Assembly (NCBI GenBank): GCA_963798085.1
Contig: CAWCRS010000002.1
Span: 288,001-352,000, forward strand
DNA: 64,000 bases
Reading direction: 5' to 3'
DNA from: an uncultured Gemmatimonadales bacterium
GTDB lineage: Bacteria > Gemmatimonadota > Gemmatimonadetes > Longimicrobiales > RSA9
In this document: positions 1-38,280 of the stretch, piece by piece
How positions within the stretch are numbered: position 1 is the stretch's first letter
Layout of the letters: every line of letters begins with the position of its first letter
The notes under the pieces: model-generated
What the model was told of the DNA's origin: nothing
Database searches by the model: none
What the model saw: only the letters and a program-made list of their open reading frames with translations
Translations under genes and position numbers: made by a program

Positions 1-203
1 CCGTCCGCGTAGAGCGCGCGGTCGCTGGACGCGACCTTGCGGTCATTGATCGTGACCAGTACGAGGTCCACATCGGACTTCTCCCAGACGCGGTCGTGCG
101 ACAGGCTGCCGCACAGGATGGCGGCCAACACAGAACGGTCCTCCTTCACCTGCTCGATCAGTCCATCGAGCGCGCGCGTAAACTTCTGTTGGGTGCTATC
201 CAC
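1..203 (-). CDS. Nucleotidyltransferase-domain protein (pol-beta superfamily), N-terminal part; runs off the window edge
   Basis: Not in the ORF track. Manual translation from GTG at 203 (SD GGAGGAG) gives [50 protein letters not shown], which has the GS...DxD NTase motif. Overlaps the upstream ankyrin stop by 8 bp. Confidence 0.75.
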
Positions 204-1971
204 TGTCTCCTCCGCGGCGCAGTCTCGCCGCCGCCTCTTTCATGCCCCGTCGGGCCGCCAGGTCCGTGGCCGTCAGCCCCTGCGTGTTGCGCACAGCGGG
301 ATCCGCGCCGTACGACAGCAGCAGCTCGATCACGGCGAGGGCCGCGGTTTCGTCATCGGGCAGCCCCATGAGCGGCGTGTGGCCGTCTTCCTGCACACGC
401 GCCAGCGCGGGCTCCTCGCGGAACAGTTCGCGCAGCCGGTCCAGCCTGCCGGTCACGACCAGGCTCCACACGTCGCGGCTGACGGGACTCAGCAGATCCA
501 CGACGCGCGGGTGCTGCTCGTACACGGCAAAGGCAAGCGGCGTGTTATCCCAGTTCTTCTCGCGCGGGTCGATGGCCGCGCCGCGCGCGAGCAGCAACGC
601 GATGACCCGCAGTGCATTGTTCGACGCCGCGGCGTGCAGCGGCCGAACCGCGCGGTCGTTTTCGACATCGGGCGAAACGCCCAGATCGAGCAGCATCTCG
701 ACGATATCGGCGCGGTCGCGGCGCGCGGCCTCGTGCATTGCGCTGTACGATGCGCGGTACTCCGGGTGTTCCGCGAGCAGTATCTCCGCCTGTGCCCGAT
801 CCAGCCGGAGACACGCGGCCGTGAATGCGTCCTCGCCTTCCAGCACCAGCGGCCTGTGTGGCGTGCCGTACTGCGCCAGCAGCGACGCCAGTTCATCGAA
901 GCCGCGGCGCGCGGCCTCCTCGTACAATGTGTGTTTCCGCTGCACGCGTGCGTGCGGCGGCTGCGCGGGCTCCGGACTCGCGCCGTGCTCGATAGACCAG
1001 CGCGCCAGAGGCAGATCGTTGTTGCGCACGGCCATGCCCAGCACGTAGCGCGCGCCTTTGCCATAGCCGCCCATGTCGATCATCGACCACTCGGGATCCT
1101 GCCAGTCCGCCGCGTGCCCCGCCTTGACCGAATATTCGTGAATACGCTGCATGATCCAGAGCATGTCATTACCGAAGTGCGCATTGTACAGCACCTGGAT
1201 GTCGTACGGGTTGGCGCCGCGTTCGAGCAGCAGCTCGGCCAGCGCGTGCGCGTGCGGATGCGGCGGCGCGTTCTCCTCGCCGGCGCCGAGCACGCCCGTG
1301 AGCGCGGTGTAGCGCGGCCCGAGCGACGACTCATCCACGATGAAGTGCGCATTGGCATCGGCGCCGTGGTCCAGCAGCAGCTGCGCGATGCGCAGCGCGT
1401 GCTCGCTCGCGGACGGCTGCGGCAGCCGTGCATAACACAGGAACATCAGCGGCTCCCATGGCTTGGGGCCGATGCGCGGGCCTCCCGATACGATGGTGGC
1501 GACGCGCTCCGTCGCGGCTTCGGGCCGCTGCGCCACGATGCGTTCGACGTCCGCAAGATCGCCGCATACGACGGCCGTATGGATGCTGTCGTGCGTGATG
1601 GCCGGGTCCTGCTGCAGCAGGCGGGCGGCCGCGTTCATGCGCCGGCTGCGCGCGGCGCCCCCGTTCACAATGACGGCGCAGGCATCTTCGAGGAACCACG
1701 CGACACGCAGCGCGTGCGCATCGTCGCCTGCAAACGTACCGGCTTGCCGGTCTTCGAGGCGATCGCGCAGCGCGGACCAGCCGGGCAGCCCGTACTCGCG
1801 GGCGAGGGCGTGCTGGACATCGCGCAGGCCGGGGGACGCCGGAGCCGCGGGCCACGCCGCGCGCAGCCGGACTCCCGCCTGTTCGTCGCCCGTGCGCAGC
1901 GCCTTGAGCCAGCGCTTCGCTTCTTTCCTGAGGTTGTCGAGGGTGCTCGCGTCGGTGAGCCGGCGGCGCAT
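196..1971 (-). CDS. Ankyrin-repeat protein with conserved N-terminal helical domain (copy A)
   Basis: ATG at 1971 after GGAAGGAAGG. N-terminus [15 protein letters not shown]...[14 protein letters not shown]. Multiple ankyrin motifs ([23 protein letters not shown]). Confidence 0.9.
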
Positions 1972-2097
1972 GGATACCTTCCTTCCGTGATCGCCTGGTG
2001 TCCGCTTGCGTTCAGGCCGGAAGAAGGTCTGTGATGTCACGGCGAACGTCGTCGGGTGGGAGTCCTCTCCCTTGCCGCGGACTGGAGGCGCCCCGTG
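1972..2097 (-). ncRNA. Conserved structured 5' leader RNA, copy A (candidate cis-regulator)
   Basis: Sense strand: CACGGGGCGCCTCCA-GTCCGC-GGCAA-GGGAG agga CTCCC-A-CCCG...ACCTTCTTCCG-GCCTG aacgcaa GCGGAC ac CAGGC gatca CGGAAGGAAGGT atcc ATG. Homologous to three other leaders in the window. Confidence 0.8.
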
Positions 2098-2111
2098 GCG
2101 CACTGGCGGGC

Positions 2112-2140
2112 AATGTTGCGTGACCTCCGGCGACTGTCAA
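2112..2140 (-). promoter_or_regulatory. sigma70-like promoter of leader A
   Basis: TTGACA (2140-2135), 17 bp spacer, AACATT (2117-2112). Same position relative to the leader as in the other three copies. Confidence 0.65.
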
Positions 2141-2309
2141 CCAACGCAGGCGCACGCGGGCCGCGACCCCGTGCCCGGGCGGCCGGCGGAACCCGGCGGA
2201 GCGCCAGCGCAGGCAGTCCGACGGCGGCATGAGACGGTTTCGTCGCCTGCTACATACAATCGGGAAACACATCCAGCCTTTCCATCCCGGCCGCGGAAAC
2301 TCATGGTCC

Positions 2310-3287: not shown

Positions 3288-4742
3288 TCAGCGCTGTGGC
3301 GGCGGCACCGTGACGGCCCAGAGTCCCTGATCGAGCTGCAGGATGTCCTGCGCATCGGCCGCGGTGAAATAGCCGAAGCCGCCGTCGCCCCAGGTCACGC
3401 CCCAGTTGTTGGCGAACTTGAAGCGTGACGTGGCCGGATCGTAGCCGACAATGGTGATCACCGTGCTGCCCAGCGTGGCCTGGTTCGCGCCGGCGGGCTT
3501 TACGAGCCCGGTACGGGTGGCGTCGTCGGTGCTCCACGCTTCGGTCGCAGTGGCCACGGCGAGCACCGGCGTCTTCCTGTCGAGTGTCGCAAGGATCGCG
3601 TCGAGGCCGGGGATCTGCGTCATGGTGGCCTTGTAGTCCGCGGCGGCGTTGTCGAGATCTCGCCAGGTGACGCCGGCGGGCAGACTGCGATTCAGTGCCC
3701 GGTACGGCCAAATCGATTCGGGCGGCGCGCCGAACTGCCGCGCGACGTAGATCGTGGTCTCGAGAAACGTGCCCTCGCCCGTGACTTCGTCGTGGCGCTT
3801 CGCCTTCTCGTAGATGTAGCGCATGGAGAGGCGCAGCGGGCGGCCCTGTGCCGAGAGCGAGGCATCCATCGCCGTGGCACACGCGGCCGCGGCCACCGTG
3901 CCTTCCTGACCGACATCCCTGACTTCGGCCCAGGGTGCGAGGTCGACCGCTCTGGGCGCTGCAACGATCAGCGAAACCGCACTGCCTCTGCGAATCGATG
4001 TCTGCGACGCAGGCTTCTGCTCGAGTACCCAACCCGGTGCTTGCTCGTTGGTCGCCTGTTGCGTGACGTCGCCCACAGCCAGGCCGACGCCGGCAAGGTC
4101 ACGCGTGGCGCGCTCGAGCGTCAGCCCGCTCACATTCGGCACGTTCACGCGCTGACTGCCTGCCCACGTGTAGACGGAGTAACCGCCGGCCGCCAGCGCG
4201 AGCGCCAGAACGACCGCAGCGGATCGCCAGTGGCTGCGCAGCCGTTCCGAGAGCGAGCCGCGCGCTCTGCGCCGCTTGATGTCCCGGCAGAGCCGGCCCA
4301 CATCGTCGTTCCATGAGCCGTCGCGCACTTCCGCCTGCTGCCGCTCGGCGAGAGCGCGGATGTCCTCGGGCAGATCCGCGGCGCCCGGCAATGCCGCACC
4401 GCCGACGAGGACGGGAATGACGAGAAGGCCGTTGGCGAGCGCGGCATGGATCTCGCCGCGCACCCAGTCATCCGCGTTGTCCAGACGACGCTGGCCCGCC
4501 GCATCCGTGAGTGTGGTCCAGTGCCTGCCGATCACGGCCAGCAGCACATCCGCCTGTCGCAGCTGCTGATTCAGCGTATCCGCGTAGTCGTCACCGCGCT
4601 GGATGTCGTCGACATCCATGAACACGGTGTCGGCGCCGAATACGCGGGAGAGATGATCGTAGAGACGGCCGGCGTGACCGGCCGAATCGTCGCGGCGGTA
4701 GCTGATGAAGATTCCGCTCACACTCGATCCGCGCGGTATCAC
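3288..4742 (-). CDS. TIR domain - TM helix - PASTA - inactive papain (C1)-like domain protein (start may be GTG 4721)
   Basis: TIR: IFISYRRDDSAGHAGRLYD...VFMDVDDI...WVRGE. Then a hydrophobic helix, PASTA (VPNVSGLTLERA...VLEQKP), and a C1-like domain (VRDVGQEGTV...IVGYD...NNWG..WGDGGF). Confidence 0.8.
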   Translation of the reverse strand: MIPRGSSVSGIFISYRRDDSAGHAGRLYDHLSRVFGADTVFMDVDDIQRGDDYADTLNQQLRQADVLLAVIGRHWTTLTDAAGQRRLDNADDWVRGEIHAALANGLLVIPVLVGGAALPGAADLPEDIRALAERQQAEVRDGSWNDDVGRLCRDIKRRRARGSLSERLRSHWRSAAVVLALALAAGGYSVYTWAGSQRVNVPNVSGLTLERATRDLAGVGLAVGDVTQQATNEQAPGWVLEQKPASQTSIRRGSAVSLIVAAPRAVDLAPWAEVRDVGQEGTVAAAACATAMDASLSAQGRPLRLSMRYIYEKAKRHDEVTGEGTFLETTIYVARQFGAPPESIWPYRALNRSLPAGVTWRDLDNAAADYKATMTQIPGLDAILATLDRKTPVLAVATATEAWSTDDATRTGLVKPAGANQATLGSTVITIVGYDPATSRFKFANNWGVTWGDGGFGYFTAADAQDILQLDQGLWAVTVPPPQR

Positions 4743-5015
4743 CGTCTGCGGTGGCGGGCCTGCCGTTCGACACGCGACGCGTGGCTCGAAACAGCGGCAG
4801 ACGTTCGTGCGAGGATGGGCTGGCGGCCGGGCTGCGTCAAGATCCGAATCCCGCGGAGCCGTGCCTTCGGATCAGAGCTGGCTCGACGCATACCCGCTGG
4901 CTGGTGTGCGACGCGCGTCGTGGGCCGGTGGGCCGGCCTGCGGGCGCTTTGCCGCCGGTTGCCGCTTCGTCCGTTCGCCGGGAGCCTGCGCCCACGACGG
5001 CACGGGTGGACTGCA

Positions 5016-5882
5016 TTATTTCCCGGCTAACAGCTCGCGAGCCTGACTCAGCGACTGGCCCTGGCTGTAGATGTCTGCCCACACATTGCCGGTGTCCGCA
5101 ATGCGCCGCTCCAGGTTGCGCAGCGTGAACGTCTGCGGCGCGACTTCGCCGCTCTCCAGCTCCTCCCACGTGCACGGCGCAGAAATCGGTGCGCCGGGCT
5201 TCGCGCGTACCGTGTACGTGGCGGCGAACGTGGCGCTGTAATCGTTGCGGCCGGTGTCGACGAGGATGCGTCCGCCACGGTCCGCCTTGCTGAACTCCTG
5301 CGTCAGGTGCACGGGATCGCGCTGCACCATGGCGCGCCCCACCGTGTGTGCGAAACTCGAGACTTCGCCGGTGTGCGCGCTGCCATCGAGCGGAATCGCG
5401 ATGTGGTAGCCCTTCGAGCCCGACGTCTTAACCCAGCTGCGCAGGCCCAGCTCGGCGAGGAAGTCACGCAGGCCGAGCGCGGCGGCGCGCAGCACGGCGG
5501 GCTCGTCAACGAGCGGGTCGAGATCGAACACACAGATGTCGGGGTGCACGAGATCAGGTGCGCGTGACACCCACACGTGTGCTGTGATGCAGTTCTGGTT
5601 GGCGATCCAGAGCAGGCCGCGCGTGTCCGTAATGAGCGGATAGTGCACGATGCCGCGGTTGTGGTGCACTTCCACCCGCTCCAGCCATTCGGGGAAGCCC
5701 TTCTTCACATCCTTCTGGAAGAAGCCTTTCTCACCCATGCCGCGGTGGTAGCGCTCCATGGTCAGCGGCCGTGCGCGGATGTGCGGCAGCATGAGCGGCG
5801 CGATCATTTCGTAATACGCTGCCAGCTCGCCCTTGGTGATGCCGTCCTCGGGGAACATCACCTTGTCCGGGTGCGTGATCAC
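5016..5882 (-). CDS. ligD: LigD primase-polymerase domain (standalone)
   Basis: ITHPDKVMFP, FFQK, PDICVFDLDP, KTSGSKGYH motifs. Confidence 0.9.
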   Translation of the reverse strand: MITHPDKVMFPEDGITKGELAAYYEMIAPLMLPHIRARPLTMERYHRGMGEKGFFQKDVKKGFPEWLERVEVHHNRGIVHYPLITDTRGLLWIANQNCITAHVWVSRAPDLVHPDICVFDLDPLVDEPAVLRAAALGLRDFLAELGLRSWVKTSGSKGYHIAIPLDGSAHTGEVSSFAHTVGRAMVQRDPVHLTQEFSKADRGGRILVDTGRNDYSATFAATYTVRAKPGAPISAPCTWEELESGEVAPQTFTLRNLERRIADTGNVWADIYSQGQSLSQARELLAGK

Positions 5883-7570: not shown

Positions 7571-8995
7571 ATGTCTCTCACCGCGATACTGCTGGCCCTG
7601 CTCGCGTGTCCACACCCGGGACCCGCAGGCCGGAATGCTGGCGGCGAAATGCAGGCCGCCGTCCCGGCCGGCGACACATTGCGGGCGCCCCCCGTTCTCG
7701 AGAACCAGTCGCGTGAGCCGCACACCGTGGAAGTCACGCTCACGGCGAAGCCCACGCGGCTCTCGCTGCTGCCCGGCGTGGAAACCGATGCCTACGCATA
7801 CAATGGCAGCATCCCGGGACCCACACTCGACGTGCACGAAGGCGATCGCGTTCTCATTCATTTCCGCAATGCATTGCCCGAGCAGACGACGGTGCACTGG
7901 CATGGTCTGCACATTCCGTGGGCGACCGACGGCAGTCCATTCAAGCCCATCCCGGCCGGTGCGCAGGCCGATCTCGAATTCACCATCCCAATGGGTACCG
8001 CGGGCACGTACTGGTACCATCCACACGCTCAGGCGCTTGCACGGTCGCAGATGGCAAAGGGACTGTTCGGCGCGATCATTGTGCGCGCGGCGGACGATCC
8101 GCTGCCTGCGATTCCCGAGAAGCTGCTGGTTCTGAGCGACAACCGTTTCCTGCCCGACGGGTCGATCGATCTGCCGGACCGGCAATCGCCGCAGGGAAAC
8201 GTGGATTTCGAGAACGGGCGCGAAGGCAATGTCGTGTTCGTGAACGGGCAGATCATGCCGGCGATTCGACTGCGGCCCGGCGAGACGCAGCGCTGGCGCG
8301 TGGTCAACGCGTCCTCTGCCCGTGTCTACCGTCTCGCGATTCCCGGTCACGAGATGCTGCACGTGGGCGGCGATGGTGGCCTCTTCGAGCGACCCGTAGC
8401 CGTCAAGGAGATCCTGATCGCAAATTCCGAGCGTGTCGAACTGCTGGTGCGCGGCACCGGAGCGGCAGGCAGCCAGACAGTACTGCAGGACCTGCCCTAC
8501 GACCGCTACATCCCGCAGACGCGCCCCGCTGACTGGGAGAGAACGAGCGACCTGCTGAGCCTTGAGTACACGGACGAACCGACTGTTCCGCCCGCCGCGA
8601 TACCGGCCACACTGCGTCGCGTGGAGTGGCTCGACACCACGTCGGTCACGACCCGGCGAGTCATGGTGCTTACGCAGGGTTTCATCAACAACAAGGCGAT
8701 GGACATGAACCGCGTCGATGAGCACGGCTCGCTCGGTTCGACAGAAATCTGGGACATCGAGAATCTCGTCGGCATGGATCATCCCTTCCACCTGCACGGG
8801 TTCCGCTTCCAGATACTGGATCGCAATGGTGTGCGCGAACCGTTTCCCAGCTGGGAGGACACGGTGAATGTGCCGAAGCACGAGTCTGCCCGGATCGTCG
8901 TACGGTTCGAGGACTACCCCGGGAAGTGGATGTTCCACTGCCACATCATGGACCACGAAGAGGGCGGCATGATGGGCATCCTCGAAATCACGTGA
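7571..8995 (+). CDS. Multicopper oxidase
   Basis: HWHG, WYHPH, HPFHLHG and HCHIMDHEEGGMM copper-binding motifs. Confidence 0.95.
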   Translation: MSLTAILLALLACPHPGPAGRNAGGEMQAAVPAGDTLRAPPVLENQSREPHTVEVTLTAKPTRLSLLPGVETDAYAYNGSIPGPTLDVHEGDRVLIHFRNALPEQTTVHWHGLHIPWATDGSPFKPIPAGAQADLEFTIPMGTAGTYWYHPHAQALARSQMAKGLFGAIIVRAADDPLPAIPEKLLVLSDNRFLPDGSIDLPDRQSPQGNVDFENGREGNVVFVNGQIMPAIRLRPGETQRWRVVNASSARVYRLAIPGHEMLHVGGDGGLFERPVAVKEILIANSERVELLVRGTGAAGSQTVLQDLPYDRYIPQTRPADWERTSDLLSLEYTDEPTVPPAAIPATLRRVEWLDTTSVTTRRVMVLTQGFINNKAMDMNRVDEHGSLGSTEIWDIENLVGMDHPFHLHGFRFQILDRNGVREPFPSWEDTVNVPKHESARIVVRFEDYPGKWMFHCHIMDHEEGGMMGILEIT

Positions 8996-9009
8996 AAAAG
9001 AGACGGGAC

Positions 9010-12903: not shown

Positions 12904-12962
12904 TTGCCTCCTTCTGGTAGATGGACCCGGGCAGTGCTGCAAAGGTGTGAGGTGGCGGGCGG

Positions 12963-14452: not shown

Positions 14453-14462
14453 GTGAAATCCT

Positions 14463-21894: not shown

Positions 21895-21924
21895 TTGCCG
21901 GCAGGCCCGCTGCGCGACTATCTT
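21895..21924 (+). promoter_or_regulatory. sigma70-like promoter of leader B
   Basis: TTGCCG, 18 bp spacer, TATCTT. Confidence 0.6.
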
Positions 21925-21934
21925 GGCCGCAGGC

Positions 21935-22061
21935 GTGCAGGACGCCTCCCGTCCGCGGGCAGGACCGAGTCCACCTGTGCTGTGCGTTGTACGAACGGTT
22001 CGAACGAACCTCCTTTCGCCCGTCGCCAGCGGACCCGGGCATTCACCACAGGAGGCTCGCC
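21935..22061 (+). ncRNA. Conserved structured 5' leader RNA, copy B
   Basis: GTGCAGGACGCCTCCC-GTCCGC-GGGCA-GGAC cga GTCC-A-CCTGTGC...GAACCTCCTTTC-GCCCG tcgcca GCGGAC c CGGGC attcaccac AGGAGG ctcgcc ATG. Confidence 0.8.
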
Positions 22062-23306
22062 ATGTCTGCTCGCCAGTTTCCATCCCATCCGGATCCGCGT
22101 CAGCTCAAGCACCAGGCAAGGGATCTGCTGCGTGCATTCCGCGCACTCGAGCCGGGTGCGTCCGCGGAATTCCGTGCACACCATCCGTATCCTGATCGCA
22201 CCGGCCCCGCGAATGCCATTCTTGCCAATGCGCAGCTCGTGCTCGCCCGCAGTTACGGCGCCTCGAGCTGGACGCAACTGATCACAGCGTGCCGCCTGAT
22301 CCACGCCCTGCAGCACGACGACCTGGATAGCGTGCGCGAACTCGTGGCGGCGCATCCCGCGTTGACGCAGGACCGCGGCGCGCGTGACGATGGCGGCTGG
22401 CGCACGGCTGCGGCGGCGGCCGCGAGTCTGGCGCTGCGCCGCGTCGTCGACATGCTGCGCCAGCGCGGCGCCCGCGACATCGCGAGCGTGTCGGCCCGGC
22501 CCGAGCTGCGCCCATGGCTGGACACGCTGCGTCTGCTCGGCCGCGTCGGCGCGCGCTTCCCCTTCGACGCGGTTGGTGGCGCGGTCGAACTGCTGGATGG
22601 CGACAATTTCGCCTTCATGATCGAGATCGGCGGCGCCATCGAGGATGAGCGCGGCGACTGGCGCTCGCGCGTGGCCCTCGCCCTGGAAACGTACACGCGC
22701 CATCCCGCGGGCAAACACCGTGTTCTCGAGACCATGGCCGCGCATGGCATTCCCCTGCCCGACTCGCCCGTCATGGCGCTGCACCGCGGGCGCATCGATC
22801 TGCTGGAAGCACACCTGCAACGCGATCCGGCGCTGCTGCGGCGCACTTTCGTACACGCCGAGATCTATCCGCCCGCACTGGGCTGCCACGCGGAGCAGGC
22901 GCTGGCGCTGCACGGTGCGCCGCTCGATGGCGCAACACTGCTGCACATCGCGACCGACTTCGAGGAACTCGAGATCGTGCGCTGGCTGCTCGACCGCGGC
23001 ATGGACGTGAACGCGCGCGCCCGCATCGATGCGACCGGCTTCGGCGGGCACACGGCGCTATTCAGCTGCGTCGTCTCGTACAACGCCGGTCGCGGGACGG
23101 ATCCGGTCGCACAGCTTCTGCTGGAGCGCGGCGCCAATGCCAATGCGCGTGCGTCCATCCGCAAGGGCCTCGCCTTCGCGCGCGATCCTTCCGTGCACGA
23201 GTATCGCGCTGTCACGCCACTGGGCTGGGGCCGCCGGTTCCATGACCCGTCGTACGTCTGTCAGGCAGCGCTGCGTGCAATCGCAGCGCACGGCGGACAG
23301 GAGTGA
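22062..23306 (+). CDS. Ankyrin-repeat protein with conserved N-terminal helical domain (copy B)
   Basis: N-terminus [17 protein letters not shown]...[14 protein letters not shown]. Ankyrin motifs [28 protein letters not shown]. Confidence 0.88.
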
Positions 23307-28420: not shown

Positions 28421-28562
28421 CCCCTTTTGTTATCAGTTGCATCGCTGTGCCGCGGGCGCCATCTCTCTGCATTCCGCGATCGCGGCGGGTTGCGCGCTGC
28501 ACTGGCCGGCCGAATACTGCGCACTTCGCCCCTTCGCGCCATCCACACCGGAGCACGGACGG

Positions 28563-30545: not shown

Positions 30546-31840
30546 CCAGGCCTGGCATGGTGCTGCTCGCGCACACGCACGGCGCCCGATCGCATTCCAG
30601 GCGACGATACGGCCTCGGCCGCCGCACCCTCTGCCTGCGCATCGCTCTCTTTGCCATCCTGCTGGCGGCCGCGTGCGCACGGCCGCAGACCGGCGCCACG
30701 CAGAACACGCGCTGGATCGCCACCTGGGAGGCGCCGCCGCAGCTGACGGAAACGCGCAACCTGCCGCCTCCGCCCGGTCTCGCCAACAGCACATTACGGC
30801 AGCGCCTGCACGTGTCGCTGGGCGGACCGCGCGCTCGGCTGCGCCTGTCCAATGAGTTCGGCGATGGCCCGCTCACCATCGCCGCCGCGCGCATGGCGCT
30901 GCCCGCGGGCGCCGGCGCCATCCAGCCCGGCAGCGACCACGCCCTCACCTTCGGCGGGCAGGCCGGCATCACGATTCCGGCCGGGACCGCCGCCACATCG
31001 GACGCGTTCGACTACGACATTGCGCCACTGTCCGACGTCGTCGTCAGCCTGCGCATCACCGTCATGCCTGCCGCCGTGACGGGGCACCCGGGCTCGCGCA
31101 CCACTTCGTTCCTGCAATCGGGCGACTGGTCCGCAGCCCCACAACTGCCATCCCCCGCGACCACCGAGCACTGGTACGTGATCAGCGGACTCGAGGTGCT
31201 CGCGCCGGCCCGAGCCAGAGCCATTGCAGTACTCGGCAATTCGATTACCGATGGACGCGGCTCCGGCACCGACCGTGATGATCGCTGGCCCGATAACCTG
31301 TCGAGGCGCCTGCAGAGCGACGCGCGTACCCGCGACATCGCCGTGCTGAATGCCGGCATTGGCGGCAATTGCGTGGTACAGGGCGGACTCGGGCCCACCG
31401 CGCTGCAACGATTGGATCGCAATGTGCTCGAACAGCCCGGCGGCCATTGGCTGATCGTGCTCGAGGGCGTCAACGACATCGGTACTGCCGGGCCGGGCGA
31501 TGCGTCCGCTCGCGTGGCGCAGGACCTGATCGCCGCGTATCGCCAGATCATCGACCGTGCCCATGCGCGAGGTCTGCGCGTCTACGGCGCGACCATCCTG
31601 CCCTTCGGTGGATCCTTTTACGACAATCCCGACCACGAGGCGGCGCGTCAGACCGTCAACCAGTGGATCCGCACGAGCGCTGCATGGGACGCGGTCATTG
31701 ATCTGGACGCGGTGGTGCGTGATCCCGCCGCGCCCGCGCATCTGCTCGCCTCGGCCGACAGCGGCGACCACCTGCACCCCGGCGAACAGGGCTATCGCAT
31801 GATCGCGGACGCGATCGACCTCGGCCTCTTCGTCGACTAA
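30542..31840 (+). CDS. SGNH/GDSL hydrolase
   Basis: LGNSITDG, NAGIGGN, LEGVND, DHLHP. GTGA overlap with the upstream stop. Confidence 0.9.
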   Translation: MTRPGMVLLAHTHGARSHSRRRYGLGRRTLCLRIALFAILLAAACARPQTGATQNTRWIATWEAPPQLTETRNLPPPPGLANSTLRQRLHVSLGGPRARLRLSNEFGDGPLTIAAARMALPAGAGAIQPGSDHALTFGGQAGITIPAGTAATSDAFDYDIAPLSDVVVSLRITVMPAAVTGHPGSRTTSFLQSGDWSAAPQLPSPATTEHWYVISGLEVLAPARARAIAVLGNSITDGRGSGTDRDDRWPDNLSRRLQSDARTRDIAVLNAGIGGNCVVQGGLGPTALQRLDRNVLEQPGGHWLIVLEGVNDIGTAGPGDASARVAQDLIAAYRQIIDRAHARGLRVYGATILPFGGSFYDNPDHEAARQTVNQWIRTSAAWDAVIDLDAVVRDPAAPAHLLASADSGDHLHPGEQGYRMIADAIDLGLFVD

Positions 31841-31906
31841 CCAGCCGTTTGGCCCGGCCACCGGCCAGCCCGGCGGCCCGCCGGTTCAATCACGCCGGGC
31901 CCGCCC

Positions 31907-32488
31907 TCAGCGCTGGCTCCAGGGCGGCACCACCCGGTTCATGCGGGCATACGCGATGGCCTGGCCCAGGTGTTCGTGCATGTCGTTGGCCATCAGCGTG
32001 AAGGCTGTGCCCAGGTCCACGTTCAGCCCGAAAAAGCTGACCTGGCGCGCGCGATCGGCCGCGCTCGCACCCCGCACGATACCCAGCAGGCTGCCGAAGG
32101 AACGCTCGACCTCGGTCGCCATCCGGGCGCGCGTCAGTCCCCCAATCCTCGCCTGCTCGGCGTTGAATGATGGGTCGGGCACCCAGCTCGGCTTGTCGAA
32201 CTTCCACATGGTGGGAAACAGCGTGGCTTCATTCACGATCAGCGTGAACACCTCACGCACCGAGCGCACGCCTTCCATCGGGCGCCAGTCGTACGTGCTG
32301 TCCGGAAAGGCCTTCGCCAGCGCCAGGAACTTGTCGCGCAGCTGCTCGATGTCCGCCACCTGCGCCTCGGCGGACGTCCTGGTGCCGCCGCCCATGTACT
32401 GGGCCGCTGCCGGCGAGCGCACGCCTGCCGTTGCCGCCAGCGCTGCCGCCGCCCACCACTGCCATCGGAACTGAATCCGGCTGGACAT
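31907..32488 (-). CDS. DinB family protein (exported)
   Basis: YDWRPMEGVRSVREV...MHEHLGQAIAYAR. Confidence 0.85.
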   Translation of the reverse strand: MSSRIQFRWQWWAAAALAATAGVRSPAAAQYMGGGTRTSAEAQVADIEQLRDKFLALAKAFPDSTYDWRPMEGVRSVREVFTLIVNEATLFPTMWKFDKPSWVPDPSFNAEQARIGGLTRARMATEVERSFGSLLGIVRGASAADRARQVSFFGLNVDLGTAFTLMANDMHEHLGQAIAYARMNRVVPPWSQR

Positions 32489-33045
32489 CGTGACCTCCGT
32501 GCGCGTTCCCGTTCCTGCGGGTGCGCCTGTATAACGCACCGTTGCGTGTCATGCGGACGCGCAGTGTCGGGCCCCGGTGCGCGCACGGGCAAAGCCCCAG
32601 TGACGAGTGCGGGGCGGGATCATGCCGGATCTCCGCCCGCCGTGACGGGCCGTTGCCGCGCGCAAGACAGTGTTGTGGCGAATCGCCGGCCAATGGCGAG
32701 GCGGTCAGGGCCAGATCGTGCGCCAGTGCTCCCGCGCCGGATGAACGGCCGCGCCAATCACGCCGCCGACGGCGGCGCCCACGCCAAAGCCGATGGCCAG
32801 CGCCCGGCCCGGCTTGCACGCTGCGCCGCACAGAAACGCGTTCCCCAGCAGCGCGAGCAGACCGAAAGGGCACGCCGCCCTTCAACCAGCGAATGCACAG
32901 GCGCTGCTCTGCGGATTGCTGCTGCGCCCGCACGCTCAATGCGGGCGGCCTCCTCGCCGCCGCATTCGAGCCGGCAGCGCAGCAGCCGGCAGCCACGCGG
33001 ATGCCGCCACGCAGCACCAGCGAGCCTGTGACCGGGCGCGCAAGA

Positions 33046-33831
33046 TCAGTGCGGCACCGGGCTGCGCGGCCGCGCCGCGCCGTACGTCTTGAACGACAGC
33101 GCGCGCAACTGCGTGCCTGCGCCGGTACCCGGGTCAATGCGCAGCAACACGCCGTTAGGAACACTGATGTTTGCCCCGTCCGTGAGTCCGTACAGCTGAC
33201 CGTCCACGAACACCAGACCCCAGACGTTTGGATAGCCAATGTTCCCGGCGCTGCCTGCGGGCGTTGCCTCACCCGTCGTCGTATTCACGGTCACCAGCAT
33301 GTCCGGCGTGCCCACGCCGAGTATCGTGGCGTACAGCGTGCCATTCGCTGCGTAGGCAATGTCGCCGCTGGAGAGCAGCGAATGGCCGTAGTTGCCCACC
33401 AGTGTCGCCAGGCCGGTCACCGTGTCGATCACGGAGAGGCTGCCCGCCAGGCCCGCGCCCATCAGCTGGCCATTGGGCGCGAACGTCAGCGCGTTCATGT
33501 CGGTCGCGCCCAGCGTGCCAATGCGCGTCGCCAGTGCGGTCGCCGGGTCGATCCGGTACAGCTCCTCGGATGTAACGGCCCATAACCCGCCGTTGGGCGC
33601 GAGCGCAAGGTCGGTCAGCTGCAGGTTGACGCCAGCCGACGTGTGTATCGGCGCAATCATCGAATCCGTGCCGGTCGCGCTGAGCGGCACGCGGTAGAGG
33701 ATCGAGAGAAAGCCGCCGACGGCGTAGATGGCGTTGCGTGGCTTCTGCGACTGGCCGGGGCCGGTCGAGTCCTTGCAGGCACTCGTGAAGGCACACGCCA
33801 GCAGGATTGCAAGGGAAACGGGACGCCGCAT
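33046..33831 (-). CDS. Beta-propeller-like lipoprotein
   Basis: Lipobox TSAC. Repeated LYRIDPATALAT / IDTVTGLAT / VNTTTGEAT blades. Confidence 0.75.
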   Translation of the reverse strand: MRRPVSLAILLACAFTSACKDSTGPGQSQKPRNAIYAVGGFLSILYRVPLSATGTDSMIAPIHTSAGVNLQLTDLALAPNGGLWAVTSEELYRIDPATALATRIGTLGATDMNALTFAPNGQLMGAGLAGSLSVIDTVTGLATLVGNYGHSLLSSGDIAYAANGTLYATILGVGTPDMLVTVNTTTGEATPAGSAGNIGYPNVWGLVFVDGQLYGLTDGANISVPNGVLLRIDPGTGAGTQLRALSFKTYGAARPRSPVPH

Positions 33832-34107
33832 GGGAAAACTCCAGATCAGGGTTGAACGCTGCTCCGGCAAGCAACCCTATAGTGCGCGTTCCGGTTCCTG
33901 AAACCGTCACGACCCACACTTCGCCGGAGCGCTGCGCTCCGTCCCCTGCCCTGCCGGCCATTCCGCCGGAGGCTTCCGCCTGCTGGCGGCCGCGCACGAG
34001 CCCGCGACGCCATGACTGGCCGCGGCCGGGCTCACGGGCAACGCGCCCCAGGTCGAAGAGCGCGGCTCGGCGCGCGCACCGGCACGTTCCATATAGTCAG
34101 CGGGGCA

Positions 34108-35484
34108 TCAGTTCGCGTCTTTCCGCGTGTGCATTCCGGACAGCACCTCATCTACCCAGGCTTTCATCTCCGGGTACGCGTCGACGCGGGCGCCAAGCGC
34201 AATGAGCGCTCGCACAACAGCGGGATAGTCGATACCGTCGACCGGCGAGTGGACCGCGAACCACAGGGTGCTGTCCAGCACCGTGCCGCCGTAGCGGTTC
34301 AGCGTTTCCAGTGACGCGCCGTGCGCGATCAGCTGGCGCACGAGGTCGAGTCGCCCACGGGCGGCGGCCGTGTGGAGCGCGGTCATGTCTCCATCCGCGC
34401 CGGCTGCATCGACGCCCTTCCGCAGCAGCAGTTCGACGACGTCGCCACGACCGTAGCGGCAGGCCCATGTCAGCGCGTAACCCAGATGCACGGCGGGATC
34501 CTGCGGCAGGTGCGGCCACGGGACATCGACCAGAGGCGAGCCCGGCAACAGTCTGCCGTTGTCGTCGACGAAGCGGTCCACGAGATCAGCACGACCCATG
34601 GCCGCGGCCGAGATCACGTTGTCGGTGCGCGCGCCGCGCAACACCAGCGTTTCAGCTGCCCGCGGATACCCGAACATGAGCGACGTCATCAGCGGCGAGC
34701 CGTCGTCCGCCACGCCGTTGATCGCCGCGCCATGGTTCAGCAGCACCTCGACCAGTGCGCTCTGCACGCCCACAGCGTGCGGATGCACGCTCGACACCAG
34801 CATCTCCATCGTGGTGCACTGGTGGTCGTACATGCTGGCCAGCGCATCCGCCGCGGCGCCGGCCTCGAGCAGCACCGTCGCGATCGCGACGGCGTTGCGC
34901 GGCGAGCGCTGGCGGAAGCCCTCGTGGCCGTTGGCTGCGGTGTAATGCAGCAGTGTGGCGCGGTGCTCGCGTGTCGACCTCGCGTGCACGAGTCGCGGGC
35001 TTGCGTCGATCAGGCGCTGCACGGTCGCCAGGTCACCCGTCACAATGGCGTCGGCCGCTGTTTCGAAGTCCGACACCGCGGACCCCGGCTGGTCGCGCGA
35101 TGCAATGTGCTTCACGAACTTCGGCCAGGACTCAAAACCATGCAGTCGCGCGATGACGAGCTGTGCCTCGGAGAGCTGCAGTCGTGCCGGCGCACCGTCC
35201 GCCGGCAGCAGGCGTGAGCGACGCACGTCTTCCACGACTGCGTTCGCTTCGCGATCCATTCTTGCCGCGTCCGGTTCGCTGGCATGGCTGCGCCCGACCC
35301 ACGCCGGCGGCGCGCTCGCTGACTGTAACCGGGCGAGTCGCCGGATCCATGCCGCGGCCCAGGCGAGGACCGCACCGGCATCGCCCGTGTGCGCTGCCCC
35401 GAGCAGATCCCTGGCCAGTGTTCTGTATTGCGCGAGATTCGGGCGAGGTGCGAGCGGGATGGCGTCGGTGAAGCGGGTCTTCAT
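34108..35484 (-). CDS. Ankyrin-repeat protein with conserved N-terminal helical domain (copy C)
   Basis: N-terminus PRPNLAQYRTLARDLL...LSEAQLVIARLHGFESW. Ankyrin motifs ATLLHYTAA, TALHTAAARG. Confidence 0.9.
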   Translation of the reverse strand: MKTRFTDAIPLAPRPNLAQYRTLARDLLGAAHTGDAGAVLAWAAAWIRRLARLQSASAPPAWVGRSHASEPDAARMDREANAVVEDVRRSRLLPADGAPARLQLSEAQLVIARLHGFESWPKFVKHIASRDQPGSAVSDFETAADAIVTGDLATVQRLIDASPRLVHARSTREHRATLLHYTAANGHEGFRQRSPRNAVAIATVLLEAGAAADALASMYDHQCTTMEMLVSSVHPHAVGVQSALVEVLLNHGAAINGVADDGSPLMTSLMFGYPRAAETLVLRGARTDNVISAAAMGRADLVDRFVDDNGRLLPGSPLVDVPWPHLPQDPAVHLGYALTWACRYGRGDVVELLLRKGVDAAGADGDMTALHTAAARGRLDLVRQLIAHGASLETLNRYGGTVLDSTLWFAVHSPVDGIDYPAVVRALIALGARVDAYPEMKAWVDEVLSGMHTRKDAN

Positions 35485-35608
35485 ACGAAGCTCCTTTCAG
35501 GGAAATCGCCTGGAGTCCGCACAAAGCAGGCTGAAAGAAGTTTCGTAACTTCGGCTGTTGTGCTTCCGGGTGGGCACGGCCCTTTCCGCGGACTGGATGC
35601 GCCCCGAG
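35485..35608 (-). ncRNA. Conserved structured 5' leader RNA, copy C
   Basis: CTCGGGGCGCATCCA-GTCCGC-GGAAA-GGGC cgt GCCC-A-CCCGG...CTTCTTTCA-GCCTG ctttgt GCGGAC tc CAGGC gatttccc TGAAAGGAG cttcgt ATG. Confidence 0.82.
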
Positions 35609-35618
35609 CGCTGCGCTC

Positions 35619-35647
35619 AAACTGGCATCGCGGGGCGGCCCGGACAA
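35619..35647 (-). promoter_or_regulatory. sigma70-like promoter of leader C
   Basis: TTGTCC, 17 bp spacer, CAGTTT. The -10 is weak, so support is mainly positional conservation. Confidence 0.45.
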
Positions 35648-35713
35648 GGCACCTTCACACGCAACGTGCCGCTGCACGGATGGCCTGGCGCGCAAGCCCG
35701 GCGTGCGCGTGAC

Positions 35714-36616
35714 TCAGGTCGTCTGCCAGAGCGCGTACGCCACCACCGCGATCACCCAGCCCGCGAGCACAATGTTGAACGCGATCATCAGCCCAAGACC
35801 GCTCCCGATCGCACGCCCCCAGCGGTGCCGGTACGCCCGCCGCAGTGACAGGATCAGGTGTAGCAAGGCAGCCAGCGTGAGGAACCCGACGACATAGCGA
35901 TCGACGGCAACCGGCAGCAGTCGCTCGATGCCCATGGCGAGCATGAAAAACGCGATCCAGTTCAGGGCGAATACCAGGTGCAGCAGTGGCGGATGCCTCG
36001 GGCTGAACAGGAACAGCGCCAGGGCAAAGGCCAGAATCGAACCGATCATGAAAGGCGGCAGCCCCTGGCTGACCGCCGAGCGGAAACGCTCCCGGAACAG
36101 ATCCGGCGATACTCCGCGCGCGGAAAGCGCCGCCAGCTGCTCCGTCGAGATGCTCTGGAACGTCTTTACGCTGCTCAGCGAACTGACGATCTGATTGTCC
36201 GGCGTAACCTGAACGAACGGACGGAGCGAGTTGGCAAGGAAGAAGACGGCCGCAGCCAGCAGGTACAGCTGCAGCGGCTGCATGTAGCGCGCGCGCCGTC
36301 CTCCCAGGAACGCGACCGTCAGCTCGCCAGGTCGAAACACGAGATCGAGCAGACTGCGCACCGGCCGCGAGCGGATGTCGAGCACGTCGCTCAGCGACTC
36401 GGCCAGGAACGCTCTCAACGAATTGCCGCCGCGCTCCGCGCCCTGACCGCACTGATGGCAGAACGGACCCAGCAGCGCTGCGCCGCAACTGGCGCAGCCG
36501 GCAGCGGATTCCTCACCCTCTCCGAATGGCGTGTTAGCAGGACTGCTTTGTCGTGACACGTCAGCGCGTCCAGCTGGCGCAGCCCGGGCGGTACGTCCAC
36601 GGCGACTGCCCGCCAC
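35714..36616 (-). CDS. DUF3667-like membrane protein with zinc ribbon (start may be GTG 36559)
   Basis: CASCG...FCHQCGQ, RPGELT.AFL.GRRARY..P.QLYL, TM helices. Confidence 0.8.
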   Translation of the reverse strand: MAGSRRGRTARAAPAGRADVSRQSSPANTPFGEGEESAAGCASCGAALLGPFCHQCGQGAERGGNSLRAFLAESLSDVLDIRSRPVRSLLDLVFRPGELTVAFLGGRRARYMQPLQLYLLAAAVFFLANSLRPFVQVTPDNQIVSSLSSVKTFQSISTEQLAALSARGVSPDLFRERFRSAVSQGLPPFMIGSILAFALALFLFSPRHPPLLHLVFALNWIAFFMLAMGIERLLPVAVDRYVVGFLTLAALLHLILSLRRAYRHRWGRAIGSGLGLMIAFNIVLAGWVIAVVAYALWQTT

Positions 36617-36736
36617 AGCCGACGTCCCCCCTGGCGATGTTCATGGCACACACCTCAGAGGCAAACGCGTTCAGCCACCAGACCTCCTTCGGGTCGGCCA
36701 GTGATTCGATGGCCAGGCGCTCGTGTGGAATGTGCA

Positions 36737-38116
36737 CTATTGCGGCGCCTCGCGGGCAGAGTCAACCACGGGCTGGCTGAACATCAGCTCGATACCATCC
36801 GGGTCGCGGATGCCGAACTCGCGCTGCCCGTAGAAAGCGGTGTGCAGGTCCTGCGTGAACCGTATCCCGGGACCGGATGGCGACGCCGCTCTTCCCGCAT
36901 GCTCCCGCTCGATCTGCCGGCGCCTGAGCGTCGCGTACAACGCATCGAGCCGGTCCGTGCGGATCCACAGGCTGAGCGCCGTGGTGGCGCCTCGCCAGGG
37001 ATCGCTCGACGGCACGAACATGATGTTGGCGGCACCGAAAGACAGGTGCGCCCAGTCCAGCCGGCCGTCCTCCGCGTGGCTGTCGCTCAGCACGAATCCG
37101 ATCGCCTGGTACCAGTCCACCGTGGCCGCCATGTCGCGCACACCCACCATGGGCGTGAGGCCGCCCACTGATGCGGCCAGGCTCGCCGCATCCACACGCG
37201 GCGTTGCGGGTGGCTCGGGCTCGGTTGCGCCCGCTTCGCGCAGCAGACGCATGGCCTCGCGGTCCCCGCGCAGCATCGCGATCTCGAGCGGCGTGCGTCC
37301 CTTCGCATCGCGCGCCTCCACGTCCGCACCCAGCGCGAGCAGCAGCTCGAGCGTGTGGTAGTGCTCGCCCGTGCGGAACAGGCCGCCCACGAGTCCGTCC
37401 GGCGGCGCGATCACGTAGTGCAACGCCGTCTGCTCCTGCTCGAAGCGTGACAGCCGGCGGCGAATGGCGTTCGGATCGTGGGCGACGACGCTCTTCACGA
37501 TCCCGGCTTCGCCCATGGCAATCGCCGAGAAGATGTGGTGGCGCGCACCGCGCGAGACGAGCAGTGCCACCACATCGCGGCGCGCCTCTCCGAACACGGT
37601 GGCGGCTCCGATCACGTCCAGCTGATGCACATCGCCGTACCCGTGCACATCCGACCCGCCGTCCAGCAGTGCGCGCACGGACTCGATCGGCCCGTGTCCA
37701 GCCGCGCCGTGCAGCGGCAGCGCATGGTCGCCGGCATCGCGCGCGTTCGGGTACGCGCCCCGCTCCAGCAGCAGCTGCACCGCGTCCGGGTGGCGCACCG
37801 CCAGGTGCAGTCCGGTGGTGCCTTCGCGACTGCGTGCCGTGACGAGGTGAGGATCCTGATCGAGCAGAGCACGCAGCGCAGCGGTGTCGCCTGCGACACA
37901 CGCCGCGAACCACGCGTCCTGTGCGGGAACATTGCGACGGTCCAGCTCGGCCTTCAGTGCCCGCCAGCTCGGAAATCCGTGCTCGCGCGCAACGGCCCGC
38001 TGCGCTTCGCTGAGACGCGCCGTCGGTTGCGTCGCGCGCAGCTCGCGCAGCCGTTCCTTGGCCAGCTTGCGCAGGTACTCGAGGGATGGACGTTCAGGAA
38101 GATCGATGCCCGGCAT
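36737..38116 (-). CDS. Ankyrin-repeat protein with N-terminal helical domain and C-terminal VOC domain (copy D)
   Basis: N-terminus PERPSLEYLRKLAKERL...AQRAVAREHGFPSW, ankyrins, C-terminus VRDMAATVDWYQAIGF...YGQREFGIRDPDG. Confidence 0.9.
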   Translation of the reverse strand: MPGIDLPERPSLEYLRKLAKERLRELRATQPTARLSEAQRAVAREHGFPSWRALKAELDRRNVPAQDAWFAACVAGDTAALRALLDQDPHLVTARSREGTTGLHLAVRHPDAVQLLLERGAYPNARDAGDHALPLHGAAGHGPIESVRALLDGGSDVHGYGDVHQLDVIGAATVFGEARRDVVALLVSRGARHHIFSAIAMGEAGIVKSVVAHDPNAIRRRLSRFEQEQTALHYVIAPPDGLVGGLFRTGEHYHTLELLLALGADVEARDAKGRTPLEIAMLRGDREAMRLLREAGATEPEPPATPRVDAASLAASVGGLTPMVGVRDMAATVDWYQAIGFVLSDSHAEDGRLDWAHLSFGAANIMFVPSSDPWRGATTALSLWIRTDRLDALYATLRRRQIEREHAGRAASPSGPGIRFTQDLHTAFYGQREFGIRDPDGIELMFSQPVVDSAREAPQ

Positions 38117-38240
38117 GATACCCTTCCTTCCGTGGTGCCCGGTGTCCGCGTTGCTCGGGCTGGAAGTCAGGGTCGCTGACCGATGATGACGTCATCCGGG
38201 TGGGTTCAACCCTTTACGCGGACCGACGGCCGCCCTGCCG
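38117..38240 (-). ncRNA. Conserved structured 5' leader RNA, copy D
   Basis: GGCAGGGCGGCCGTCG-GTCCGC-GTAAA-GGGT tga ACCC-A-CCCGG...ACCCTGACTTCCA-GCCCG agcaac GCGGAC ac CGGGC acca CGGAAGGAAGGGT atc ATG. Confidence 0.8.
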
Positions 38241-38250
38241 GCCGGCAGTG

Positions 38251-38280
38251 AATCTAATCGACGGTTCGATCCGCGGGCAA
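38251..38280 (-). promoter_or_regulatory. sigma70-like promoter of leader D
   Basis: TTGCCC, 18 bp spacer, TAGATT, starting immediately after the permease stop codon. Confidence 0.6.

Follow-up and report, generated by a model that had tools for sequence, protein, structure and literature searches.

What is the short structured leader that precedes four ankyrin-repeat genes in a 64,000-nucleotide stretch of DNA from an uncultured Gemmatimonadales bacterium (contig CAWCRS010000002.1, positions 288,001 to 352,000; hereafter the window, meaning the whole stretch that was analysed), and to which partner is it tied? An earlier note, made from the letters of the window, had described four such leaders and had regarded them as a structured translational control element in the 5' untranslated region (UTR), always paired with ankyrin proteins that share one N-terminal domain (NTD). 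The comparative analysis presented here indicates that this leader belongs to a widespread and apparently undescribed RNA family, whose constant partner is the NTD, itself an apparently undescribed domain, and not the ankyrin repeats.

A covariance model built from the four window leaders alone (R1) maps all four at the places where they had been noticed, with leader lengths of 129-133 nt. The coordinates of their elements were mapped from a multiple alignment, and the sequence was also inspected directly; SD stands for the Shine-Dalgarno sequence, paired strands are separated by a slash, and P0, P1, Pa, P2 and P4 are helices.

1969..2101, minus strand: leader A, 133 nt, 114.9 bits with R1; P0 2097-2101/2087-2091; P1 2092-2095/2053-2056; Pa 2084-2086/2074-2076; 5' strand of the kiss, GUCCGC, 2077-2082; P2 2068-2071/2058-2064; linker 2026-2052; anti-SD 2019-2025; P4 2013-2017/1993-1997, with GCGGAC in its loop at 1999-2005; SD 1978-1982; ATG 1971-1969.
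21932..22064, plus strand: leader B, 133 nt, 113 bits with R1; P0 21932-21936/21942-21946; P1 21938-21941/21974-21977; Pa 21947-21949/21957-21959; GUCCGC 21951-21956; P2 21962-21965/21969-21972; linker 21978-22009; anti-SD 22010-22016; P4 22018-22022/22036-22040, with GCGGAC in its loop at 22029-22034; SD 22051-22055; ATG 22062-22064.
35482..35612, minus strand: leader C, 131 nt up to the ATG, 116.5 bits with R1 at 35484-35612 (35482-35612 with the second model, R2, described below); P0 35608-35612/35598-35602; P1 35603-35606/35567-35570; Pa 35595-35597/35585-35587; GUCCGC 35588-35593; P2 35579-35582/35572-35575; linker 35540-35566; anti-SD 35533-35539; P4 35527-35531/35508-35512, with GCGGAC in its loop at 35514-35520; SD region 35493-35497; ATG 35484-35482.
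38114..38242, minus strand: leader D, 129 nt, 116.6 bits with R1; P0 38238-38242/38228-38232; weak P1 38233-38236/38197-38200; Pa 38225-38227/38215-38217, with a U.U middle pair; GUCCGC 38218-38223, the kiss being extendable to an 8-bp GUCCGCGU:ACGCGGAC; P2 38209-38212/38202-38205; linker 38169-38196; anti-SD 38162-38168; P4 38156-38160/38137-38141, with GCGGAC in its loop at 38143-38149; SD 38123-38127; ATG 38116-38114.

The helix variants listed in the earlier note can be read in the four sequences: P2 is GGGAG:CTCCC, GGAC:GTCC, GGGC:GCCC or GGGT:ACCC; P4 is GCCTG:CAGGC in leaders A and C and GCCCG:CGGGC in B and D; and P1 is CGGG:CCCG in A and C, CAGG:CCTG in B and weak in D (AGGG:CCCG). 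All four contain both GTCCGC and GCGGAC and have a paired SD. Apart from these leaders, the top R1 match in the window reaches 10.4 bits (E=1) and lies away from the two ankyrin genes devoid of the NTD (10414-13038 and 18454-19317); since the window holds no other credible match, these two genes have no leader, as had been observed before. Single-sequence folding of the leaders is unexceptional (z of -0.2 to -0.6), so the case for a structure depends on comparative evidence.

This evidence was obtained from 100 aligned sequences (99 distinct), in which 28 pairs, P0 being excluded, correspond to 2628 cells that were compared with 500 shuffles. Paired cells amount to 95.2% versus 85.2 ± 0.3% in the shuffled alignments (none of the 500 reaches the observed value) and to only 36.8-57.0% when partners are slid by 1-3 columns; 23 pairs have changes on both sides versus 13.7 in the shuffles, and the covariation score is 0.331 versus 0.146, counts that are not to be taken as probabilities, because the aligned sequences are related and their independence is overstated. 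By helix, pairing is 95.2% for P1, 86.9% for Pa, 98.7% for the kiss, 99% for P2, 91.2% for anti-SD:SD and 96.5% for P4. P1, P2, anti-SD:SD and P4 were part of the model that made the alignment, and therefore their pairing counts favour the structure; the kiss, Pa and P0 were not in that model. Building a covariance model and searching further genomes with it, a check that the earlier note had proposed, thus recovered a family with both-side changes above those of the shuffles.

The first ~15 bases of the leader constitute a hairpin, P0, with a 5-7 nt loop that holds the 5' strand of P1 (seen in 33, and then in 100, aligned copies), so that P0 and P1 together form a H-type pseudoknot in which the P0 loop pairs with CCYG downstream of P2. 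A P0 stem of at least 4 bp was found by a best-stem script in 73 of the 100 copies, the mean best stem being 4.24 bp versus 3.05 bp after the 3' arms have been exchanged between sequences (at most 3.41 in 200 such permutations), and 20 distinct 4-bp types were counted (e.g. GCGC:GCGC, GCGU:ACGC, GCGG:CCGC, GCCG:CGGC, GCAC:GUGC and GCAA:UUGC). Pa is a helix of 2-3 bp (columns 17-19 with 31-33) that displays GUCCGC in its loop; its middle pair, 18-32, is CG in 88 sequences, UA in 4, AU in 3, GC in 2 and unpaired or other in 2. Since the Pa loop presents GUCCGC, the long-range pairing with GCGGAC is a loop-loop kiss between the Pa and P4 loops: the complementarity noticed earlier is borne out, in a different form from the one proposed and together with two helices, P0 and Pa, that had been overlooked.

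The kiss is nearly invariant, and compensated changes occur independently in the 100-copy alignment: AUCCGC:GCGGAU (loci L037 and L040), ACCCGC:GCGGGU (L059, L068, L090 and L092), GCCCGC:GCGGGC (L085), GGCUCGC:GCGAGCC (L095), GGUUCGC:GCGAACC (L081), GUCCAC:GUGGAC (L078) and GCCCGC:GCGGGU (L033, from the unpublished genome G015), with one kiss mismatch in L020. G31, C28, C30 and A36 are conserved in 100% of the sequences, and GUCCGCGG and GCGGAC in 89-100%. Leader length varies from 115 to 136 nt (median 126), with a variable linker of 19-36 nt in which no conserved structure was found (minimum free energy of -2.87 versus -2.98 when shuffled). On these comparative grounds, the leader fold is a compact double pseudoknot, composed of the P0/P1 H-type pseudoknot, the Pa-P4 kiss, P2, the linker, and P4 stacked on anti-SD:SD.

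The anti-SD:SD helix connects this fold to translation. In the alignment, the partner of the SD (columns 184-188) is an anti-SD strand of its own (columns 115-119), with changes on both sides in all 5 pairs, and the cognate duplexes have a mean energy of -13.3 kcal/mol versus -9.1 for permuted partners and -6.7 for shuffled ones. Pairing and duplex energies thus back the predicted sequestration of the SD and, with it, the translational control element in the 5' UTR put forward previously. A SD-freeing alternative, in which the anti-SD would pair with the purine-rich segment of the aptamer, gave no signal (-8.6 kcal/mol cognate versus -8.7 permuted).

The beginning of the transcript is suggested by putative promoters, which in the window are the following:

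2112..2140, minus strand: putative promoter of leader A, TTGACA 2140-2135, 17-nt spacer, AACATT 2117-2112.
21895..21924, plus strand: putative promoter of leader B, TTGCCG 21895-21900, 18-nt spacer, TATCTT 21919-21924.
35619..35647, minus strand: putative promoter of leader C, TTGTCC 35647-35642, 17-nt spacer, CAGTTT 35624-35619.
38251..38280, minus strand: putative promoter of leader D, TTGCCC 38280-38275, 18-nt spacer, TAGATT 38256-38251.

A strict E. coli-type sigma-70 consensus scan of 21700-38400 flagged none of the three leader promoters there. Of the 100 sequences, 56 have a TAnnnT that begins 14-12 nt upstream of model position 1 and 54 a TTG that begins 37-35 nt upstream of it; 68 combine a -10-like nAnnnT with TTG 16-19 nt upstream, versus 1.7 on average and at most 7 when the upstream regions are shuffled. 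This phasing predicts the 5' end of the mRNA at, or next to, about the first base of P0, and the leader (~126 nt) would then be the 5' untranslated part of the mRNA. A coding role, as a N-terminal extension of the protein, is ruled out by an in-frame stop in 62 of the 93 leaders that end in a start codon.

Since the fold keeps the ribosome-binding site paired, we read the leader as a translational off-switch, a reading in which we have high confidence and whose direction of control we infer from that pairing. In the compared sequences, the anti-SD:SD helix lies directly beneath P4, the loop of which is held by the 5' domain, and formation of the kiss would stiffen the stack of P4 on anti-SD:SD, blocking binding of the 30S subunit. 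As no conserved SD-freeing alternative was found, the 'on' state is probably the undocked, breathing hairpin.

The family extends well beyond the window. R1 retrieved two extra copies elsewhere in the source genome (53 and 41 bits), which holds 6 canonical leaders and 1 divergent one; the four copies of the earlier note are thus all genuine, and the genome-wide set is larger. In related genomes, R1 found 40 places in 16 of 60 genomes (17 of 61 with the source genome), distributed, source genome not counted, as 13 of 36 in the first family, 0 of 12 in the second and 3 of 12 in the third; 16 of the 46 R1 places are in G015 and G016, two unpublished genomes, and the tally is 15 of 59 genomes when they are left aside. 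Because a model made from four copies found two further copies in the same genome, these 40 places and 79 of 80 loci picked by protein domain (see below), the four window leaders are confirmed, at the level of sequence comparison, as real family members beyond chance.

R2, a second covariance model built from 100 sequences, detected the leader in 41 of 151 sampled genomes of the source phylum and, for the class around a Burkholderia genome, in 7 of 151. Judged from record titles, whose names we assigned to phyla ourselves, NTD/leader loci occur in about a dozen phylum-level groups: Acidobacteriota, Gemmatimonadota, Verrucomicrobiota, Planctomycetota, Armatimonadota, Actinomycetota, Chloroflexota, Deinococcota, several classes of Pseudomonadota, and Poribacteria, Eisenbacteria, Eremiobacterota and Dormibacterota lineages. 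Cultured hosts on record are Variovorax paradoxus VAI-C, Methylosinus sp. C49, Paraburkholderia sp. GAS41, Jiangella and Kutzneria. Three named records were tested and all three have the leader: a plasmid of Methylosinus sp. C49, the 2.5-Mb replicon of V. paradoxus VAI-C, and the record 'Pseudomonas phage Y11' (OQ572412.1, flagged UNVERIFIED), in which a leader of 53 bits precedes a NTD-DUF1835 gene (3883-5230, plus strand). The flanks of the Y11 record (an OYE-type flavin oxidoreductase, an alpha/beta hydrolase and a family-2 glycosyltransferase) look bacterial, not phage, and no association of the leader with phages is claimed; among viral contigs, 2 of 5 pattern matches are real leaders.

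The genes behind the four window leaders share, as the earlier note had it, ankyrin repeats (Pfam) and a common N-terminal domain (alignment and domain hidden Markov model, HMM):

196..1971, minus strand: gene A, 591 aa; NTD at residues 1-77 (1741-1971), then ankyrin repeats (Pfam Ank_2, 3.2e-21); 81.6 bits with the domain HMM.
22062..23306, plus strand: gene B, 414 aa; NTD at residues 1-82 (22062-22307), then ankyrin repeats (Pfam); 96.1 bits with the domain HMM.
34108..35484, minus strand: gene C, 458 aa; NTD at residues 10-132 (35089-35457) with a long insertion, then ankyrin repeats (Pfam); 59.8 bits with the domain HMM.
36737..38116, minus strand: gene D, 459 aa; short-form NTD at residues 1-63 (37928-38116), ankyrin repeats and a C-terminal VOC/glyoxalase domain (Pfam Ank_2, 2.4e-22; Glyoxalase, 5.1e-08); 70.7 bits with the domain HMM.

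The linkage between leader and NTD was followed in both directions. Starting from the RNA, a NTD gene was found at 111 of 114 loci: directly downstream at 109 and as the second gene at 2, while 1 locus lies at a contig edge and 2 have none. These loci comprise 33 from related genomes (31 start with the NTD, as judged by reading, 26 of them aligned, and 2 with a signal-peptide DinB_2 protein), 28 from the R2 scan of the phylum (27 positive by the domain HMM, and 1 where the contig ends after 14 matching residues), 40 further places (38 positive, L192 weakly, and 2 negative) and 13 from other phyla (all positive). At the two DinB_2 loci (L011, 413-1623, minus strand, on G028:C213, and L023 on G001:C162) the NTD start codon stands 2 nt past the DinB_2 stop, in the same operon, and they are therefore no exceptions to the linkage. 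Starting from the protein, 79 of 80 loci have a leader that ends at the NTD start codon, and the 80th (L100) keeps the 3' half of the leader only; these are the best 80 of at least 569 NTD relatives in one-per-species genomes, picked by protein domain alone.

Both NTD-negative loci, L190 and L193, are partial RNAs. In L193 the kiss strand and the 3' strand of P4 are lost. L190 (601-679, plus strand, on G139:C2) has an intact 5' half (P0, P1, Pa and P2; 51 bits) and a typical promoter, lacks the kissing hairpin, the SD helix and the NTD, and precedes a pilC/gspF-like frame with no evident start codon; it may be a recent wreck, e.g. the deletion of a NTD-GspF fusion like that of L078, or a stand-alone use of the 5' domain.

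The domain HMM identifies 7 NTD genes in the source genome, 6 of them with canonical leaders. The seventh NTD-like gene lies outside the window (C2:239197-239853, minus strand; L212), is the weakest (32 bits) and has a divergent leader (17.2 bits) in which, by eye, the architecture and a TTGACA/TCATTC promoter are kept and the kiss has become GCCCG:CGGGC; the most divergent NTD of the genome thus belongs to the gene with the most divergent leader. The linkage holds regardless of the body that follows the NTD (Ank, HEAT, Clp_N, GspF-type, VOC or DUF1835). The claim that the leader is always paired with ankyrin proteins does not stand, as leader and NTD also precede HEAT, Clp_N, GspF/PilC-type, VOC/glyoxalase, DUF1835 and small domain-only proteins, and the part of the claim that tied it to the shared N-terminal domain is upheld in both directions. 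The constant partner of the leader is the NTD, not ankyrin.

The NTD comprises ~75 residues, with the consensus LPxRPsLEqLKKqAKxLL...(variable)...LaDAQxViAREYGFxSWxxLKxHVE, in which K18, R34, Q48 and W60 (alignment numbering) are nearly invariant. It is a basic domain, with a median pI of 9.9 and a net charge of +4 (n=95), on proteins that are otherwise acidic (median pI 5.6, n=62). At E<=0.001 its relatives amount to 9,631 cluster representatives, and at E<=1e-10 to 4,568. Most of the top 150 carry the domain from residue 1-10 onwards, often in 2-3 tandem copies, and its partners among these 150 are Ank (27), Clp_N (5), LRR (5), FliM (3), FliG_C (2), ClpX zinc finger (2) and GGDEF (1), many having none. 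Tandem arrays of two to four copies were noticed in the proteins P0036, P0048 and P0083 and at loci L162, L168, L169, L172-L174 and L195; in P0083, NTD copies alternate with ClpX-type zinc fingers and Clp_N repeats.

The AlphaFold2 model of the NTD, obtained from a 9-row alignment, has five helices (mean confidence score, pLDDT, of 81.6). A profile search of the PDB gave nothing below E 0.2, Foldseek of the model against the PDB nothing at E<=0.001, and a wide VIA-align search no convincing structural neighbour (best Z 4.0); no family covering the domain was found in Pfam (E<=10) or NCBIfam, and the clusters retrieved from ESM Atlas were all unnamed 'hypothetical protein' ones. Below the cut-off, the second half of the NTD resembles the first ~60 profile positions of PF20066 (Glyoxalase_8). 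The assignment to PF20066 was rejected, with a best window score of 20.7 bits against a cut-off of 23.7 bits and only profile positions 4-59 of 143 covered. In one actinobacterial order, PF20066 proteins occur in 2 of 41 genomes and neither of the 2 has the leader; these two proteins score above the cut-off (over profile positions 6-57 and 9-55 only) and lack the LPxRP...AK start. NTD proteins were also not accepted as a known defence system, since PADLOC 2.0 gave only generic ankyrin-repeat matches (PDC-M72A and Ankyrin) over the repeats.

We tentatively favour the NTD encoded immediately downstream as the effector of the switch, in an autogenous feedback to which we give a little less than an even chance. 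The NTD protein, as it accumulates, would attach to the folded leader, with the near-invariant kissing helix as the most plausible site, and hold it in the SD-sequestered state; such a feedback could be common to the paralogues of one genome. We favour this domain because the linkage is two-way and near one-to-one whatever the C-terminal body, because it survives a gene inserted between leader and NTD gene, because the seventh leader/NTD pair co-diverges, and because the domain is basic. Several observations weigh against this proposal. A near-invariant core across about a dozen phylum-level groups and in six canonical paralogous leaders is seen more typically in small-ligand aptamers than in protein operators, and in paralogues it would force cross-talk under autoregulation by the NTD. 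The genome of L190 (G139, 100% complete) keeps an intact leader 5' half yet has no NTD gene, and the NTD has no recognisable RNA-binding fold or family in the PDB profile, Foldseek, VIA-align, Pfam and NCBIfam searches. The linkage could be partly passive, as the NTD is always N-terminal and 3' domain swaps retain the 5' end. On the side of the alignment, kinship among its rows makes the shuffle statistics overstate independence, and 6 of the 100 rows come from the unpublished G015 and G016.

The strongest alternative is that the leader is a true riboswitch, which we consider possible though on balance doubtful: P0, P1, Pa and P2 with the docked P4 loop would constitute an aptamer for a small molecule or ion, the binding of which would stabilise the kiss and the SD helix and turn translation off, the NTD being the protein part whose function relates to the ligand. 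As covariation and promoter phasing suggest, the leader combines what is generally expected of a riboswitch, a conserved structured element and a SD-sequestering platform in the 5' UTR. Its two subdomains are joined by the variable, unstructured linker of 19-36 nt, a layout that recalls the ligand-dependent pseudoknot docking of known riboswitches. The very strong conservation of the core across phyla, its sharing by the six canonical leaders of the source genome, as expected for one common signal, the persistence of an intact 5' domain in G139 and the missing RNA-binding signature of the NTD all speak for a ligand. However, the association is with one domain on protein-binding scaffolds (Ank, HEAT, LRR and Clp_N) and not with pathway enzymes or transporters, so that no candidate ligand emerges; few of the conserved nucleotides are unpaired, most invariant bases being in helices; and no anti-anti-SD pairing was detected in the duplex comparison given above.

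A further reading, which we regard as rather unlikely, takes leader and NTD together as a portable RNA-protein cassette, in which the NTD would be a new RNA-binding fold with the double pseudoknot as its cognate ligand, the nascent NTD capturing in cis the 5' end of the mRNA that encodes it. Going beyond feedback, the resulting ribonucleoprotein might tether swappable bodies (Ank, HEAT, LRR, Clp_N, ClpX zinc finger and FliM/FliG pieces) to a RNA scaffold, or the leader might mimic a cellular RNA that is the true target of the NTD.

A ligand-independent element seems improbable. It would be a 5'-terminal fold that protects the mRNA end, fixes a low constant translation or responds to temperature, for NTD proteins needed sparingly. 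Bacterial mRNAs are known to be stabilised by a stem at their 5' end, and this proposal agrees with a transcript predicted to begin at the P0 base, a SD paired in the default fold and no SD-freeing alternative found; however, known stabilisers and RNA thermometers are far simpler than a double pseudoknot with a near-invariant kiss of 6-7 bp, and mere damping would not require sequence invariance across phyla. Little probability is likewise left for a leader read by some other trans factor (another protein, a small RNA or the ribosome) with the NTD linked only as the first thing encoded, for, although the NTD has no detectable nucleic-acid-binding family or fold and its N-terminal position (residue 1-10 in most of the top 150) would alone preserve the linkage through 3' domain shuffling, the linkage survives the DinB_2 insertion, no RNA-first locus besides the partial or degenerate L190 and L193 has the leader before a NTD-less operon, and the most divergent NTD of the source genome has the most divergent leader.

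With the NTD still the preferred effector, the leader can be compared with described systems. Matching against Rfam, which the earlier note had proposed, returned no family: the whole window has no match at the gathering threshold (Rfam 15, 4227 models), leader A at E<=10 has no matches other than snoTBR7 (14.8 bits) and osmY (11.8 bits), which fall far short of the threshold, and six loci of other phyla have no match over the leader at E<=1. A full-text literature search found no description of the leader family. A preprint (bioRxiv 10.64898/2026.10.21.760802) mentions a leader cluster before glyoxalase, monooxygenase and NmrA genes, and nothing in that passage links the cluster to the present RNA.

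By its proposed action, the leader would work most like the pseudoknot operators of ribosomal proteins or the two-subdomain pseudoknot riboswitches, and appears to be a member of neither group. Autogenous pseudoknot operators are found in E. coli rpsO (S15), the alpha operon (S4) and rpmI-rplT (L20, with a long-range pseudoknot), where translation is repressed by the basic protein product itself, bound to the fold of its leader. The likeness lies in a 5' leader with one or two pseudoknots that include or adjoin the ribosome-binding site, and in the joint inheritance of the RNA and the proposed binding protein. In contrast, the downstream proteins are not ribosomal here (Pfam), the protein part presumed to bind is an N-terminal domain that is portable and joined to many different bodies, and about a dozen phylum-level groups are covered, a wider range than that of most ribosomal protein leaders. 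By gene content, a ribosomal protein operator was rejected, the downstream genes being neither ribosomal nor known RNA-binding proteins; in fact, no RNA-binding or ribosomal-protein family is present among the leader genes by Pfam and NCBIfam, which gave Ank, HEAT, Clp_N, T2SSF and VOC.

The ZTP riboswitch (pfl motif, RF01750) has two subdomains, a variable linker, pseudoknot docking and an expression platform at the 3' subdomain, and the present leader resembles it in two-subdomain docking over a variable linker and in the position of the platform. It differs in that no match to the model appears even at E<=1 to 10, in its conserved sequences, in a context that is not purine or folate metabolism, in docking by a loop-loop kiss and in a 5' domain that is itself a H-type pseudoknot; with no Rfam match and downstream genes that encode NTD-scaffold proteins, identity with ZTP was rejected. 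SAM-II, preQ1-II and preQ1-III are riboswitches whose pseudoknots occlude the SD, and preQ1-II embeds a hairpin in a pseudoknot loop. The H-type pseudoknot logic, the burial of the SD and an embedded hairpin, as in preQ1-II, are common to them and the leader, whereas here the SD lies outside the pseudoknot, in a separate helix below the kissing hairpin; these three classes were discarded for want of a Rfam match and because the SD pairs with a separate anti-SD strand. In the guanidine-IV (mepA) riboswitch, the ligand stabilises a kissing loop of two hairpins, controls a terminator and switches expression on. In our leader, too, regulation would hinge on the kissing of an aptamer hairpin with one of the expression platform, but there is no Rfam match, the platform is a SD helix, the kiss should favour the off state and the 5' domain is much more elaborate.

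The neighbourhoods of the four window leader genes are heterogeneous, and no conserved partner was seen in them. A cupin-domain gene (23303-23851, plus strand) overlaps the stop of gene B and is thus probably co-transcribed with it under leader B. Upstream of leader D there is a FtsX/MacB-type permease gene (Pfam), whose TGA stands at 38283-38281, the putative promoter of D starting directly after it. The leaderless ankyrin gene at 10414-13038 (minus strand) encodes an 874-aa protein in which an ECF-type (extracytoplasmic function) sigma factor (Sigma70_r2 and r4) is fused to a long ankyrin-repeat array; the NCBIfam model MzaA, an anti-phage-associated sigma factor, matches weakly over the ankyrin-repeat regions of 4 of the 8 proteins scanned, this fusion not being among them. 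Between gene A and the sigma-ankyrin fusion, a multicopper oxidase gene (7571-8995, plus strand) and a multi-haem-type cytochrome c gene (8926-10305, plus strand) are placed back to back. The window also holds a gene for a 484-aa protein with a N-terminal TIR_2 and a PASTA domain (3288-4742, minus strand; weak PADLOC matches to ThsB-like TIR and PD-T4-6), adjoined by a LigD primase-polymerase gene (5016-5882, minus strand), and a leaderless DinB_2 gene (31907-32539, minus strand).

Leaders so widespread, and with such support from covariation, are rarely found. If the binding of a small molecule is true, the leader would be a new orphan riboswitch class that guards a large family of unexplained scaffold proteins; if it is the NTD that binds, the NTD would count as a new RNA-binding domain, and the leader as the first autogenous operator to travel as a cassette with a domain and not with a whole gene. 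Either answer would be directly testable in vitro with a RNA of ~130 nt and a peptide of 75 residues.

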